Below, piece by piece: positions 1 through 4,065 of a DNA stretch of 4,065 nt. The stretch lies in the IMG/VR virus record IMGVR_UViG_2695420822_000018, one strand, 5' to 3'. The notes beneath the pieces are model-generated. The model saw nothing but the letters and a program-made list of their open reading frames with translations, was not told the origin of the DNA and made no database searches. Origin of the DNA: a virus (Duplodnaviria; Heunggongvirae; Uroviricota; Caudoviricetes). Both the position numbers and the translations under genes were made by a program. The first letter of the stretch is position 1. Each line of letters begins with the position of its first letter.

Positions 1-341
1 CAAAGTGATCTACTATTCCGCGCAGCTATTTAGGAGTAGAGCGATAACGTGTTTTAATTCTGTCTCGTTCATTTTACTCACCTGAACACGCCACATACCA
101 GAGATTCGTTGTTGCCAAGATCGATAGTATTCATGTTGACCCCATTTCCCCTTAACGCCGGGTGGCGGAACGTTTTATCTACTGCGCTTTGTATCAATCA
201 ACAACTGCCGTCATGTTCGTATGCCTCAGGCTGGCTACTTAGCCCTGTTCAGTGACTGGATAACTCGAGGTATTGTCCTGCCGTTCTCTGGTGGGGCGTT
301 GTTTGGATATGCTTATTAAACACAATTTGTTTTCTTGTGTC

Positions 342-356
342 AACACGCAATGTGTT
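342..356. promoter_or_regulatory. Candidate distal operator AACAC-gcaa-TGTGTT, same arms as the palindrome at 917-931
   Basis: Seen in sequence: 5+4+6 inverted repeat with arms identical to the 917-931 site, inside a cluster of ACACA/TGTGT half-sites (319-356). Function is inference. Confidence 0.3.
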
Positions 357-385
357 TTATGGTGAGTGTCATATGATGATGCTAC

Positions 386-409
386 AAAAAAGCCCGCTGA
401 TAGCGGGCT
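386..409 (-). terminator. Rho-independent terminator downstream of the repressor gene
   Basis: Seen in sequence: stem GCCCGC (392-397), loop tgata, stem GCGGGC (403-408), flanked by A6 on the plus strand (386-391), which is a U6 tail on the minus-strand transcript. It lies about 30 nt past the repressor stop codon (440-442). Confidence 0.6.
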
Positions 410-439
410 GATTGGCATATTACTGTGATAGCAAGATCA

Positions 440-859
440 TTATTCCGGTGGGGGATTATCTTTAATCCTGCCTCTCAAATATTTTTCTACATACTCATCG
501 ATTTCTTTTAGCCGGACTTCAAATAGCTCAATCATTCGTTGTTGTTCTGAGCCCGGTAGCTGGTTAAACAACTCAAGAAGTTTTCGTTGGGATTCATTTA
601 ACCACAATTCAGAAGATTCCTGTTCTCCAAAGAGGAGCTCAGGAGGAGATATGCCAAGTGCCTTTCCCAATACGACAGCGTCATGTACTCCAACATTTCT
701 GCTGCCCGCCTCATAGTTACCTATACGCGATTGCGTCCATCCGCAGATTTCAGCAAGTTTTCCTTGAGATAAACCAAGCTTCTGCCTGCGCTCTTTAAGA
801 CGCATTGCAATTTTGTCATTGAGCCTACTAGCGGCAATTTTTTCGTTTTCTTTTTCCAT
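440..859 (-). CDS. Prophage repressor, HTH XRE family, DicA/CI-like, 139 aa, with no LexA-like S24 peptidase domain
   Basis: ATG at 859-857 preceded by AAGGA; stop TAA at 442-440. N-terminal HTH (LGLSQGKLAEICGWTQSRIGNYEAGSR). The C-terminal motif LLELFNQLPGSEQ resembles the DicA motif LELLELFNALPESEQ as I recall it. Divergent to a Cro-like gene, the classic immunity layout. Confidence 0.85.
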   Translation of the reverse strand: MEKENEKIAASRLNDKIAMRLKERRQKLGLSQGKLAEICGWTQSRIGNYEAGSRNVGVHDAVVLGKALGISPPELLFGEQESSELWLNESQRKLLELFNQLPGSEQQRMIELFEVRLKEIDEYVEKYLRGRIKDNPPPE

Positions 860-870
860 TGCATCCTTGT

Positions 871-885
871 ATCACGAATCGTGAT
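871..885. promoter_or_regulatory. Perfect palindrome ATCACGA-a-TCGTGAT, candidate operator next to the repressor start
   Basis: Seen in sequence: 7+1+7 inverted repeat 12 bp upstream of the repressor ATG (859). Operator role is inference. Confidence 0.4.
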
Positions 886-916
886 TTACATAAAACACAA
901 AACAGCTTGGCTATAT

Positions 917-931
917 AACACAAGGTGTGTT
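917..931. promoter_or_regulatory. Perfect palindrome AACAC-aagg-TGTGTT (AACACA-agg-TGTGTT), candidate operator over the rightward promoter
   Basis: Seen in sequence: inverted repeat lying between the candidate -35 (TTGGCT) and -10 of the Cro-like gene promoter. A second copy of the same arms is at 342-356. Confidence 0.4.
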
Positions 932-955
932 TAAAATTGTCATCGGAGGTTTTCA

Positions 956-1198
956 ATGAACAAAATTTCAACATATCGAAAACAGCTTGGGCTGTCTCAA
1001 AGACAACTTGCTGTTCAGTTAGGGTGGATACAAAGCCGACTGGCAAATTACGAAGCAAATTTTCGTACCCCTGGACTAGAGGAGTGCAGAAAAATTGTTT
1101 CTACCCTTAATCGGCTTGGCGCTCATTGTGGACTTGACGATGTATTCCCCCCAGACGGTAAGCATAGCGAAAACAGCATAGGAGCGGTTGATTCATGA
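956..1198 (+). CDS. Cro-like HTH XRE transcriptional regulator, 80 aa
   Basis: ATG at 956 with GGAGG 6 nt upstream. The HTH segment LGLSQRQLAVQLGWIQSRLANYEA is near-identical in pattern to the repressor HTH. The stop TGA (1196-1198) overlaps the ATG (1195-1197) of the next gene as ATGA. Confidence 0.8.
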   Translation: MNKISTYRKQLGLSQRQLAVQLGWIQSRLANYEANFRTPGLEECRKIVSTLNRLGAHCGLDDVFPPDGKHSENSIGAVDS

Positions 1199-1331
1199 AA
1201 ATCAGGCATGAGCACATCGAATCAGTGTTGTTAGCCCTGGCAGCCGAAAAAGGGCAGGCGTGGGTCGCTAACGCAATTACTGAAGAATATCTGCGCCAGG
1301 GGGGCGGCGAATTGCCCCTTGTACCAGGCAA
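1195..1331 (+). pseudogene. 5' fragment (about 45 codons) of a YdaT/CII-like gene, cut off by the N run at 1332
   Basis: Seen in sequence: in-frame translation MKIRHEHIESVLLALAAEKGQAWVANAITEEYLRQGGGELPLVPG. Nucleotides 1189-1331 are about 99% identical to 1626-1767, the start of the longer copy. Confidence 0.5.
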
Positions 1332-1336
1332 NNNNN
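1332..1336. other. Run of 5 N (assembly gap or ambiguity)
   Basis: Seen in sequence. Sequence homology to the second ydaT-like copy stops exactly at this gap. Confidence 0.95.
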
Positions 1337-1420
1337 TTTTTCATATTAGGGAATTCTAATTTTTCTTGACTTAGGTTTCTCTACGATCTAGTTTCCTTAG
1401 GAAAATCTAAGGAGCTCGAT
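1337..1420 (+). promoter_or_regulatory. Candidate promoter and operator region for the DicC-type gene
   Basis: Seen in sequence: TTGACT (1366-1371), 17-bp spacer, TAGTTT (1389-1394); palindrome TTCCT-t-AGGAA (1393-1403); RBS AAGGAG (1409-1414) 6 nt before the ATG at 1421. Function is inference. Confidence 0.3.
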
Positions 1421-1648
1421 ATGTTGAAAATTGATGCTATAGCGTTTTTTGGCAGCAAAACAAAGCTTGCCAATGCCGCAGGAGTTAGGCTGGCAAGCAT
1501 TGCTGCATGGGGGGAACTGGTTCCTGAAGGTCGCGCGATGCGCCTGCAAGAGGCATCTGGCGGGGAACTTCAGTACGACCCCAAAGTTTATGACGAATAT
1601 CGTAAGGCAAAACGACCTTGGAAGGTGATTCATGAAAATCAGGCATGA
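1421..1648 (+). CDS. dicC: DicC-type (YdaS/DicC family) Cro-like regulatory protein, 75 aa
   Basis: Good RBS. The translation MLKIDAIAFFGSKTKLANAAGVRLASIAAWGELVPEGRAMRLQEASGGELQYDPKVYDEYRK closely matches my recollection of E. coli Qin prophage DicC (76 aa). Its 3' end overlaps the start of the ydaT-like gene by 17 nt. Confidence 0.8.
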   Translation: MLKIDAIAFFGSKTKLANAAGVRLASIAAWGELVPEGRAMRLQEASGGELQYDPKVYDEYRKAKRPWKVIHENQA

Positions 1649-2053
1649 GCACATCGAATCAGTGCTGTTGCCCTGGCAGCCGAAAAAGGGCAGGCGTGGG
1701 TCGCTAACGCAATTACTGAAGAATATCTGCGCCAGGGGGGCGGCGAATTGCCCCTTGTACCAGGCAAGGACTGGAACAATCAGCAGAATATCTATCACCG
1801 TTGGTTGAAAGGTGAAACGAAAGCGCAAAGGGAAAAAATTCAGAAACTGATCCCTGCGGTTCTGGCAATTCTTCCGCGTGAGCTGCGTCACCGACTCTGT
1901 ATCTTCGATACCCTGGAACGCCGTGCATTACTGGCGGCGCAGGAAGCGTTGAGTACGGCAATTGATGCGCATGATGATGCAGTCCAGGCCGTTTACCGGA
2001 AAGCGCATTTCAGCGGCGGCGGGTCTTCCGACGATTCTGTCATTGTTCATTAN
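1632..2053 (+). CDS. YdaT/CII-like protein (about 140 aa), disrupted here by a 1-bp deletion near 1670 and with an ambiguous stop codon (taN at 2051-2053)
   Basis: ATG at 1632 with AGGTGA RBS. Frame 0 stops at 1806-1808 after 58 codons; the first copy (1195-1331) is intact across the same stretch (gttgttagccctgg versus gctgttgccctgg). Downstream frame 2 (track ORF 1748-2071) continues to ...AHFSGGGSSDDSVIVH. The YdaT family call is from position after the Cro-like gene, size and recollection, not from a search. Confidence 0.6.
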
Positions 2054-2159
2054 GTTGAGTACGGCAATTGATGCGCATGATGATGCTGTCCAGGCCGTTT
2101 ACCGGAAAGCACATTTCAGCGGTGGTGGGTCGCCCGGCGATTCTGTCGTAGTGCATTGA
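2054..2159. repeat. Divergent duplicate of the last 35 codons of the ydaT-like gene (about 90% identical to 1948-2053)
   Basis: Seen in sequence: 106 bp aligning to 1948-2053 with about 11 substitutions, mostly at third codon positions, ending in TGA. It is joined to copy 1 through a single N at 2053. Confidence 0.7.
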
Positions 2160-2248
2160 TTGAAATTAATCGTGCCGGATTGTTTTGTTCGGTATCAGTT
2201 AAATGTAACGCTGCGAGCGTTACAAGGTGAAAACAAATGGCTTCAAAC

Positions 2249-2259
2249 NNNNNNNNNNN
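2249..2259. other. Run of 11 N (assembly gap or ambiguity)
   Basis: Seen in sequence. Confidence 0.95.
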
Positions 2260-2375
2260 CGCAGGAAGCGTTGAGTACGGCAATTGATGCGCATGATGAT
2301 GCAGTCCAGGCCGTTTACCGGAAAGCGCATTTCAGCGGCGGCGGGGCTTCCGACGATTCTGTCATTGTTCATTAA
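2260..2375. repeat. Third copy of the ydaT-like 3' end (about 99% identical to 1938-2053), ending in TAA 12 bp before the O-like gene
   Basis: Seen in sequence: 116 bp with one substitution relative to 1938-2053 (gggtcttcc versus ggggcttcc). This is probably the true 3' end that adjoins the replication gene. Confidence 0.7.
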
Positions 2376-2387
2376 GCAAAAGTTTCC

Positions 2388-3587
2388 ATGCTGTTTGTGC
2401 TTATTCTAAGCAACCGGGCAGCATCATACGGGGCAATTATGGCCGCATTACCATACATGCAACTGTACATAGCTGATTACCTGGCTGACACCATGCATTT
2501 GTCAGCAGAGGAGCACGGCGCGTATTTGTTGCTGATGTTCAATTACTGGCAAACAGGAAAGCCAATACCCAAAAACAGGTTGGCAAAAATTGCCCGTCTG
2601 ACTAACGAGCGATGGGTTGATGTTGAACCATCCTTGCGGGAGTTTTTTTGTGATAACGGCGACGAATGGATGCATCTTCGGATTGAGGAAGATCTGGCAT
2701 CTGTCAGAGAAAAATTAACCAAAAAATCAGCCGCAGGAAAAGCATCTGTTCAGGCCAGAAGAAGCAGAAAGGAAGCAGATGTTCAAACAAAACAAGAGAG
2801 AAATTTAACAGGTGTTCAAACAGATGTTGGAGTGATGTTCGAACATGATGCCAACACAAAGGCAACTAATAAAGATACAGATAAAGATCTAAAAACAGAT
2901 CTAACCCATCCCAAACCCTTCCCTTCCGGAAGGGAGTTTCGGGATTTTGTGGCTGGAGTGCTTGAGGGGAGATTATCTGGCGGTACTGCAGCGGAATTTT
3001 GTAATTCTGCGGTGGTTGCGTTGCAGGCTGCTGGCCTGGATGTCTGTCGTGAGTATCCGGTGCCAGAGCGTGGTGACGGTTGCGGAGGGCGGATTGATAT
3101 CGTCGTGACTGACAGGAACGGTGTCCGGTGTGGGAGCGAGCTTGACCGAAATTCTCCGCGACAGAAATCACTGCTCAAAATCGGTGCTGTTGAAACCGGG
3201 ATATGTGTCTTGCGGCGCAGTGATATCGCAAGGCACACCGAGCAGGGAATTCTGGTTATCGGTGGGGCTGTTCGCCAGAAAAAATTTGACCCGTTGTCAG
3301 TTGATCTGCCCGACTGGTTGCCAGAAACACTCTGGCATGAGTGGGTCCAGTTCAGGCAGGCATTGCGAAAACCGATTCGAACGGAGCAGGGCGCTAACGG
3401 GGCGATACGGGAACTGGAAAAATTCCGTCAGCAGGGTTTTACACCTGAGCAGGTGATTCGACACAGCATCGCCAATGAATACCAGGGTCTGTTCGCGCCG
3501 AAAGGTGTTCGGCCTGAGACGTTGCTCCGACAGGTTAACACCGTCTCGTTGCCGGACAGTGCGATCCCGCCAGGCTTCAGGGGGTAA
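2388..3587 (+). CDS. O-like replication initiation protein: DUF1376 (YdaU-like) N-domain, K/D/T-rich linker, Cys-containing central segment, DnaT-like C-terminal tail
   Basis: Long ORF, stop TAA at 3585-3587. An alternative start at 2439 (MAALPYMQLY...) is plausible because the first 17 residues (MLFVLILSNRAASYGAI) are hydrophobic and atypical. The C-terminus ...RQVNTVSLPDSAIPPGFRG matches the E. coli DnaT C-terminus (...RDVNTVSEPDSQIPPGFRG) as I recall it. It sits immediately upstream of the DnaC-like gene. Confidence 0.85.
   Translation: MLFVLILSNRAASYGAIMAALPYMQLYIADYLADTMHLSAEEHGAYLLLMFNYWQTGKPIPKNRLAKIARLTNERWVDVEPSLREFFCDNGDEWMHLRIEEDLASVREKLTKKSAAGKASVQARRSRKEADVQTKQERNLTGVQTDVGVMFEHDANTKATNKDTDKDLKTDLTHPKPFPSGREFRDFVAGVLEGRLSGGTAAEFCNSAVVALQAAGLDVCREYPVPERGDGCGGRIDIVVTDRNGVRCGSELDRNSPRQKSLLKIGAVETGICVLRRSDIARHTEQGILVIGGAVRQKKFDPLSVDLPDWLPETLWHEWVQFRQALRKPIRTEQGANGAIRELEKFRQQGFTPEQVIRHSIANEYQGLFAPKGVRPETLLRQVNTVSLPDSAIPPGFRG
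2743..2905. repeat. Iteron-like repeats (core TGTTC/TGTTG at 2747, 2780, 2813, 2825, 2836) followed by an AT-rich tract with two AGATCT palindromes; candidate phage origin inside the O-like gene
   Basis: Seen in sequence: cagatgttcaaaca, caggtgttcaaaca, cagatgttgg and gtgatgttcgaaca with 33-33-12-11 bp core spacing, then aaagatacagataaagatctaaaaacagatct. Established knowledge: the lambda origin lies inside the O gene and consists of iterons plus an AT-rich region. Origin function here is inference. Confidence 0.4.
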
Positions 3588-3593
3588 CAGACC

Positions 3594-4065
3594 ATGAAAA
3601 ATATTGCGACAGGAGGCGTTCTGGAGCGTATCCGCAGACTGACCCCACCACATGTAACCGCCCCATTCAGAACGGTTGCGGAGTGGCGCGAGTGGCAACT
3701 TGCTGAAGGCCAGAAACGTTGCGAGGAGATCAACCGCCTGAATCGTCAGTTGCGGGTGGAAAAAATCCTGAACCGCTCCGGCATCCAGCCGTTGCACCGG
3801 AAGTGTTCGTTTGCGAATTACCGGGCGCAGAACGACGGTCAGCGACATGCACTGAGTCAGGCGAAATCCATAGCTGACGAACTGATGACAGGCTGTACGA
3901 ATTTTGTGTTCAGCGGTAAGCCCGGCACCGGAAAAAATCATCTTGCAGACGCGATTGGCAACCGGCTGATGGCGAAGGGGCGTAGCGTGATTATCGTCAC
4001 CGTGTCCGATGTCATGAGCGTGTTGCATGAGAGCTACGACAACGGCAAATCCGGTGAAAAATTTT
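3594..4065 (+). CDS. DnaC-family replicative helicase loader (prophage paralog); 5' partial, continues past the window end
   Basis: ATG at 3594 with AGGGGG RBS. The translation MKNIATGGVLERIRRL...NRSGIQPLHRKCSFANYRAQNDGQRHALSQAKS...FSGKPGTGKNHLADAIGNRLMAKGRSVIIVTVSDVM aligns closely with E. coli DnaC, including the Walker A motif GKPGTGKN. No stop codon before the window end. Confidence 0.92.
   Translation, partial: MKNIATGGVLERIRRLTPPHVTAPFRTVAEWREWQLAEGQKRCEEINRLNRQLRVEKILNRSGIQPLHRKCSFANYRAQNDGQRHALSQAKSIADELMTGCTNFVFSGKPGTGKNHLADAIGNRLMAKGRSVIIVTVSDVMSVLHESYDNGKSGEKF

Follow-up and report, generated by a model that had tools for sequence, protein, structure and literature searches.

In phage records the homologue of YdaT is labelled as a cII activator. 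The protein is the functional equal of lambda CII and carries a POU-type HTH domain (PMC9986795). Its helix alpha6 builds a four-helix-bundle tetramer and is followed by a disordered C-terminal tail, extending in CP-933P from Tyr125 to His141, and the CP-933P protein binds the sequence TTGATT-N6-AATCAA at the border between ydaS and ydaT (PMC9986795). A second kind of system that has to be considered here belongs to genome assembly: 'duplicated overlapping contigs' and 'duplicated contained contigs' have been described as classes of false duplication (Kelley & Salzberg 2010, PMC2864568; see also PMC9516828). Concerning artefacts of gap closing, we found in the literature nothing specific beyond such general papers on false duplication.

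The stretch of DNA analysed here, which we call the window, comprises 4,065 bases, which is all of the source record, and displays the 3' end of ydaT three times. Its runs of N coincide exactly with the joins, as the original prediction had claimed, and they divide the window into four contigs, A to D (Table 1). We conclude that the tandem copies are very probably the overlapping contig ends of two related prophages, joined across N gaps, and not a biological repeat. The original prediction had also proposed a concatenation of variant ends by the assembler, and this proposal is sustained by the contig-end boundaries and by the colinear de-duplicated paths described below. The biology beneath the artefact is already known, and consists of two Rac-like modules in which a conserved CII-like ydaT lies between exchangeable cro and initiator genes.

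Table 1. Contigs, gaps, genes and ydaT 3'-end copies of the window
Feature	Position	Strand	Remarks
Contig A	1-1331		left portion of the type-1 Rac-like module
Gap A/B	1332-1336		5 N
Contig B	1337-2052	+	chimera: type-2 promoter region, type-2 Cro, mixed-allele ydaT
Gap B/C	2053		single N
Contig C	2054-2248	+	copy 2, then type-2 intergenic region and initiator start
Gap C/D	2249-2259		11 N
Contig D	2260-4065		begins with copy 3, then YdaU-like initiator and 5' part of ydaV
IS-related sequence	1-34		contig A
DUF1391 gene remnant			contig A
CI/RacR-like repressor	440-859	-	Pfam HTH_3
Cro-like protein, type 1	956-1198	+	Pfam HTH_3
ydaT 5' end	1195-1331		first 137 nt; contig A
Type-2 Cro, 75 aa	1421-1648	+	Pfam P22_Cro; contig B
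ydaT, mixed alleles	1632-2052	+	contig B; one base short of a full stop codon
Copy 1	1938-2052	+	ydaT codons 103-140; 3' end of B; type-1 alleles
Copy 2	2054-2159	+	true type-2 allele; stop TGA at 2157-2159; opens contig C
Type-2 replication initiator	ATG at 2237	+	first four codons; contig C, within the rest of C (2160-2248)
Copy 3	2260-2375	+	type-1 allele; stop TAA at 2373-2375; opens contig D; unique G2346
Type-1 replication initiator, YdaU-like, 399 aa	2388-3587	+	Pfam DUF1376, 7.3e-25
ydaV 5' part, DnaC/IstB-like helicase-loader ATPase	3594-4065	+	Pfam IstB_IS21; gene leaves the scaffold end

The intact YdaT of 140 aa scores 44.4 bits against the Pfam family YdaT_toxin (PF06254; cut-off 21) and matches PDB 8bt1, a YdaT_toxin domain protein which is the solved CP-933P YdaT, over residues 2-140 (E = 1.2e-5), besides PDB 3c4r (1.6e-6). 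In the annotated loci (L001-L005 and L007-L026), all in Rac-like prophages, the gene has a cro-like gene on one side and replication genes on the other. Judged by colinearity, the repeated part probably spans most of alpha6 and the tail, and all the amino-acid differences among the copies, found at residues 132, 133, 134 and 138, would fall within the tail. A candidate YdaT operator motif occurs where it would be expected, at 1188-1205 with one mismatch and at 1625-1642 with two; just three of 200 shuffled sequences reached three matches, and these are predicted binding sites. Concerning the replication genes, the YdaU-like initiator matches phrog_6451, a primosomal protein (2.3e-116), and contains an insert of about 105 aa (aa 189-293) whose sole match is phrog_1347, of unknown function; sequence searches of Pfam, NCBIfam and PDB returned nothing for it. 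The gene that follows it is called ATP-binding protein or ydaV in the annotation of L001 and L004.

The three ydaT 3'-end copies were recovered where the original prediction had placed them by a repeat search (family D1: 1938-2052, 2044-2158, in a gapless register that is slightly off, and 2260-2374), by Tandem Repeats Finder (period 106, 1.9 copies, 92% matches, head-to-tail over 1948-2147) and by alignment; the end given for copy 1, 2053, is the N itself, and was corrected to 2052. A repeat of such length and identity is far beyond chance, and an Rfam search of the repeat for an RNA or non-coding element returned nothing at gathering thresholds. Pairwise alignment revealed a single difference in 115 nt between copies 1 and 3, T2024 versus G2346, which turns TCT (Ser) into GCT (Ala) and is therefore nonsynonymous, and 11 differences in 105 nt between copies 1 and 2, the stop codon included. 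The stop is TAA in copy 3 and TGA in copy 2, and in copy 1 it is cut to TA followed by the N; the encoded peptides end in ...GGGSSDDSVIVH (copy 1), ...GGGSPGDSVVVH (copy 2) and ...GGGASDDSVIVH (copy 3), exactly as had been read before. Third codon positions hold 7 of the 10 sense-codon differences between copies 1 and 2, and three amino acids change from the one to the other (S>P, D>G and I>V). By the Nei-Gojobori method, 7 synonymous and 3 nonsynonymous differences give a dN/dS of 0.11 (Fisher p = 0.0018), and the value for the whole ydaT gene between type-1 and type-2 loci is 0.10. The original prediction had counted about 11 differences in copy 2, mainly at third positions, and had taken mostly synonymous change as the signature of diverged paralogous alleles under purifying selection. 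This holds for copy 2, whose changes are real and represent a genuine divergence of two paralogous ydaT genes, but not for copy 3, where the one change is Ser>Ala. We also found a second overlap, absent from that prediction, at the ydaT 5' end, where 1189-1331 corresponds to 1626-1767 (families D2 and D3); here the last 143 nt of A differ from B by one SNP and a 1-nt deletion.

All copy boundaries that face a gap coincide with contig ends: copy 1 runs up to the final base of B, C and D open with copies 2 and 3 at their very first base, and the overlap between A and B runs to the last base of A. The overlaps measure 143 nt (A/B), 105 nt (B/C) and 115 nt (B/D), and SNPs also lie at varying distances from the contig ends. 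A single constant k-mer overlap, which would have pointed to a specific de Bruijn assembler, was rejected on these values; the overlaps are not one constant k-1, and a plain de Bruijn account does not fit, needing a later step of extension or gap filling. At its left end the window matches a sequence with up to 10 occurrences per genome, located beside IS91-family transposase genes, and its right end is within ydaV, with about 88% identity between the two prophages. This agrees with a small scaffold delimited by repeats.

A search of 5,426 complete E. coli genomes with the whole window gave, at best, five pieces over just 3,372 bp. E. coli FDAARGOS_944 has two loci about 716 kb apart. One of these is colinear with A plus D and encodes, in order, repressor-139, HTH-80, YdaT, YdaU and the ATPase; the second prophage encodes repressor-135, Cro-75, YdaT, a replication initiator of 262 aa and ydaV. 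The part of C beyond copy 2 is colinear with positions 4107-4195 of this second locus (L002), in which the initiator CDS starts at 4184, and the initiator matches phrog_2509, a replication initiation protein (1.2e-89). Through look-ups of exact proteins we also reached the chromosome of S. sonnei 53G (accession HE616528.1, as named in PMC10673971), where a type-1 and a type-2 Rac-like immunity/replication module lie 1.17 Mb apart, with one ydaT apiece. The two regions of that chromosome are 773,546-779,773 and 1,952,629-1,959,828. Contig A is 100% identical to the 53G type-1 locus (L007) over 1-86 and 85-1331, a window-specific 93-bp deletion being its sole departure; D agrees with the same locus at 1805 of 1806 positions, with G2346 versus T as the one mismatch; C is identical at 195 of 195 positions to the type-2 loci of 53G (L018) and FDAARGOS_944. 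Because A, C and D match the 53G loci at 99.9-100%, the source is almost certainly a draft assembly of S. sonnei.

After removal of the duplicated parts, A + B(1768-1937) + D forms an ungapped path of 3,223 nt, identical at 99.69% to VL40 and at 99.91% to 53G, and B(1337-1947) + C forms a path of 806 nt, identical at 99.5% to the 53G type-2 locus. In S. sonnei 53G, E. coli FDAARGOS_944 and VL40 each locus has a single ydaT, of 140 aa or frameshifted. The separate Rac-like loci of 53G and FDAARGOS_944 agree with the proposal that the alleles belong to different resident prophages. The further claim, that the source should hold at least three related prophage junctions, found no support, as two loci explain all but one base and B is chimeric.

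Contig B aligns to the 53G type-2 locus with no gap and 15 mismatches, all 15 of which are the type-1 allele. Along B the alleles run from type 2 (1665-1669) to type 1 (1732-1756), to type 2 again (1879-1900) and to type 1 (1981-2052), with at least three switches between paralogues; the type-2 marks are 1665, a 1-nt deletion after 1668, 1879 and 1900. None of the 852 complete E. coli genomes with a match to that stretch has the deletion. An assembly error was rejected as its origin: it is present in the 53G type-2 locus and, since B aligns there without a gap, it is a true frameshift in the type-2 ydaT of S. sonnei, a gene that appears in gene calls as a fragment of 101 aa. We then tabulated the alleles of 24 ydaT copies taken from the loci that had been fetched. 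Each of the 10 finished-chromosome loci obtained from the protein look-ups is pure (L007-L009 type 1, L017-L023 type 2), pure type 2 is also the state of L024 and of two type-2 draft contigs, L025 and L026, and mixed patterns are confined to short draft contigs, namely B, L013 and L012. L012 shows type 2 at 1879/1900 only, and L013 (CXAR01000170.1) has the mixed pattern of B within type-1 flanks, on a contig free of N. The mixed pattern would fit SNP bubbles that were resolved independently of one another where a repeat of two copies had collapsed, and by its alleles B is a collapsed-repeat chimera of the two paralogues and not a third locus. A natural third haplotype was also rejected for B, given mismatches to type 2 that are all type-1 alleles, the number of switches, and a pattern never met in the finished genomes examined.

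It could be argued, nevertheless, that the source has three or more Rac-like ydaT loci, in line with the three junctions of the original prediction, B being a recombinant third locus (type-2 Cro and a gene-converted ydaT whose 3' end is type 1, with T at 2024) and D carrying a real Ser>Ala SNP, with the tandem arrangement still an artefact. The window does contain three distinct 3'-end sequences, an independent draft (L013) repeats the pattern of B, some E. coli genomes have up to three places matching the ydaT end, and T2024 lies in B between type-1 alleles at 2020 and 2026, which implies reads with T on a type-1 background beside the reads with G. We nevertheless consider this unlikely, with a chance of being correct that is small. 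No complete E. coli genome among the 5,426 matches the whole of B above 98%, the finished S. sonnei type-2 locus reaching 98.0%, and the fetched finished S. sonnei-type loci are all pure. B also terminates at the ydaT stop codon, exactly where the paralogues cease to align, as a collapsed repeat would and a unique locus would not. It is similarly improbable that the pattern shared by B and L013 is a real allele, generated in an S. sonnei lineage by repeated gene conversion between two resident Rac-like prophages; if it were, the source would hold a combination of type-2 cro and type-1-like ydaT end unseen in the finished genomes examined.

G2346 is the only base of the window left over by the two loci. 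None of the 5,426 complete E. coli genomes has it, their best match standing at 99.4% and lacking just that base; a 37-mer around it has 0 matches in species-representative genomes and 0 in JGI metagenome contigs, and 10 of 10 fetched contigs encoding an identical 399-aa YdaU are without it. Its context is GGCGGCGGG[T>G], a change of T to G within GGCGGCGGGT. The strongest systematic-error motif of Illumina sequencing is GGT, with T miscalled as G, typically following GGC motifs (Meacham et al., PMC3295828). Because of this motif context and of its absence from other collections we read G2346 as a systematic sequencing error, which is the most likely origin and one we propose with moderate confidence; an allele found nowhere else in the collections searched, at a known error motif, also speaks against a real SNP in D. 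The mismatch may be the reason why B and D stayed unmerged despite their overlap of 115 nt.

A very improbable alternative is that the sample was mixed, with alleles of two strains or of a metagenome, and that the scaffold concatenates strain variants. The structure of variant bubbles would look identical in such a case, and T and G at 2024/2346 could be strain heterogeneity. However, no mixture is needed, because single finished genomes, 53G and FDAARGOS_944, carry both locus types, and A, C and D are nearly or fully identical to 53G; strain variants would moreover be expected with common flanks, and not with different cro and initiator genes.

To search for real tandem junctions we used a query of 121 nt centred on the join between copies 1 and 2. 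It matches 1,511 of the complete E. coli genomes, at the top places by two pieces that fall on one and the same stretch of 105 nt in a single ydaT; no single piece has an E-value better than 3e-21, and a contiguous junction, which would rank first as a single piece, was found in none of the 5,426. The ten fetched contigs with identical YdaU also contain no tandem array, with one ydaT end per locus. An artefact of this class is also seen in an independent draft, the scaffold FUDH01000158.1 (L011), where a type-1 module is followed by a single N and then by a type-2 ydaT. Drafts routinely break this locus into pieces, since the longest contig with an identical YdaU measures just 2-5 kb in 276 of 319 collection blocks.

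On the sequence alone a real rearrangement may formally have occurred, its junctions being hidden by the Ns. Lambdoid prophages commonly recombine with each other. However, a tandem array truly formed by inter-prophage recombination, through partial duplication of the 3' end of ydaT and with Ns standing for unresolved bases only, has beyond this just the literal order of the scaffold in its favour, and we regard its probability as negligible, since it needs three or four breakpoints all falling exactly in unsequenced gaps, C breaks off 12 nt into a different gene and B one base short of the stop codon, the arrangement was met neither in the 5,426 complete E. coli genomes nor in the ten fetched contigs, and the de-duplicated paths are perfectly colinear with normal loci.

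We therefore return to the joining of overlapping contig ends and propose how it could have arisen. The source would be a small draft scaffold from a genome with two Rac-like modules and a nearly identical ydaT in both, type 1 having a Cro-like HTH_3 protein upstream and the YdaU-type initiator downstream, type 2 a P22_Cro-like protein upstream and the other initiator downstream. The block of ydaT common to both loci is about 430 bp long, from 6 nt before the ATG to the stop codon, with unrelated cro genes on one side and, on the other, initiators that differ in their N-terminal parts. Short reads would be too short to cross this block, so that the contigs with unique flanks, A, C and D, would enter ydaT by 105-143 nt, about one short-read length, and then stop, and the shared core would be assembled only once, as the collapsed and chimeric contig B. 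Read pairs would tie B to all four flanks, and the scaffolder would presumably have placed the contigs in the order A-B-C-D with estimated gaps of 5, 1 and 11 N. The overlapping ends would have been left unmerged where the paralogues differ (A/B and B/C) or where a single base differs (B/D), and the outcome would be a ydaT 3' end shown three times and a 5' end shown twice.

The value of this result is in quality control: the tandem array, the extra ydaT fragments and the novel Ser>Ala allele that gene callers and repeat finders would take from this record are not to be believed. It is also a case in which two resident prophages with a common gene of about 430 bp break a short-read assembly. 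Scaffolding can chain paralogous contig ends and yield a chimeric consensus that mimics recombinants.

Compared with the known systems, the window resembles the described false duplications (PMC2864568) in the near-identical facing ends of neighbouring contigs, with a gap between them and an alignment that reaches the contig ends, in the short and partly redundant contig C placed in between, and in real polymorphisms that mimic a recent duplication. It differs from them because the duplicated sequences are prophage paralogues within a haploid bacterium and not the haplotypes of a diploid, and because B is also chimeric. With the immunity region of Rac and CP-933P it shares the order racR (cI) - ydaS (cro) - ydaT - ydaU/ydaV and the protein families, with the CI-like repressor and the Cro-like gene transcribed divergently and YdaT, DUF1376/YdaU and a DnaC/IstB-like ATPase after the latter, and an inverted repeat TTGATT-N6-AATCAg across the cro stop and ydaT start of the window is a putative operator like the CP-933P operator OM (PMC9986795). 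Unlike in Rac and CP-933P, the S. sonnei type-2 ydaT is frameshifted and the type-1 YdaU has the additional segment of about 105 aa; functionally there is no difference. Finally, as in lambdoid mosaicism, a conserved ydaT joins exchangeable cro and initiator modules, and this mosaicism is here the context of an assembly failure and nothing new.

The replication initiators of the two Rac-like prophage modules, type 1 and type 2, differ in their N-terminal parts, which match DUF1376/phrog_6451 in the former and phrog_2509 in the latter, while a C-terminal domain (phrog_18589 and the O-like phrog_678) is common to both. At the DNA level, homology between the two types restarts at window position 3279, at about 88% identity, and continues through ydaV. 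The initiator gene therefore contains a mosaic joint at the level of domains.

The type-1 initiator of the window is of the YdaU type and is longer than the usual YdaU, such as that of E. coli O157:H7 (L004; 285 aa). For its additional segment the sole match found was phrog_1347, a family of unknown function, and none was obtained in Pfam, NCBIfam or PDB. In FDAARGOS_944 and VL40 this ORF, also intact there, is split by PGAP into two YdaU pseudogene fragments; the split is apparently an annotation artefact caused by the inserted domain.

Coordinates of the features discussed in the text
Feature	Location	Remarks
YdaU-type replication initiator	window 2388-3587	intact ORF, 399 aa
Additional segment of YdaU-type initiator	window, about 2952-3266	~105 aa; aa 189-293
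Shared C-terminal part of type-1 initiator	window 3279-3587	
Type-2 initiator	window 2237-2248; L002 (FDAARGOS_944) 4184-4972	start only in window
Mixed ydaT, L013 (draft contig CXAR01000170.1)	1275-1701	
Mixed ydaT, L012 (draft contig FTUR01000185.1)	1314-1741	
Deletion in DUF1391 gene (51 aa)	window 86/87, between CACCTGAA and ACACGCC	93 bp (31 codons), in-frame

Upstream of the initiators, three inverted repeats similar to the CP-933P YdaT operator, TTGATT-N6-AATCAA, were found in the window and are considered here as putative sites. In both locus types such a candidate operator spans the cro stop and the ydaT start (1188-1205, with one mismatch, and 1625-1642, with two), and the third (2156-2173, two mismatches) overlaps the stop codon of type-2 ydaT. 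The expected number of such matches was 0.44, and three were attained in 3 of 200 shuffled sequences.

The type-2 ydaT of S. sonnei (3206-3633 in the type-2 locus of strain 53G, L018) is frameshifted past codon 13 by a 1-nt deletion, which falls after position 1668 of the window, in contig B; in S. sonnei this cryptic prophage therefore carries its CII-like regulator as a pseudogene. In finished genomes gene callers report it, where they call it at all, as a 101-aa fragment, and the deletion was present in none of the 852 complete E. coli genomes having this stretch.

Concerning the left end of the window, positions 1-34 match at 100% a sequence of which chromosomes and plasmids hold as many as 10 copies per genome. 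In plasmid p1_ST866 this sequence adjoins transposase genes of the IS91 family; in S. sonnei 53G, positions 1-86 are unbroken, and the neighbouring gene encodes a transposase of the IS630 type (DDE_3). The scaffold thus begins within repeated, IS-associated DNA. The DUF1391 deletion is specific to the window when compared with all related loci fetched (L001-L003, L007-L016), its borders share only a GAA microhomology, and no complete E. coli genome covers at least 80% of window 1-110 at one place. It could be strain-specific, or another assembly error.

Type-1 and type-2 ydaT alleles are also mixed within N-free contigs of two further draft assemblies. In L013 the gene carries the allele pattern of the chimeric contig B, frameshift included, yet its flanks are type 1. 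Both mixed genes are probably recurrent collapsed-repeat chimeras, by which analyses of SNPs or recombination in S. sonnei drafts would be misled. In a third draft scaffold (L011, FUDH01000158.1), a type-1 module is followed, across a single N at 4215, by a type-2 ydaT beginning at about nucleotide 57 of the gene. The N comes not far past the point where the DUF977 gene (3722-4144) ends, and paralogues are chained in the same way in this scaffold and in the window.
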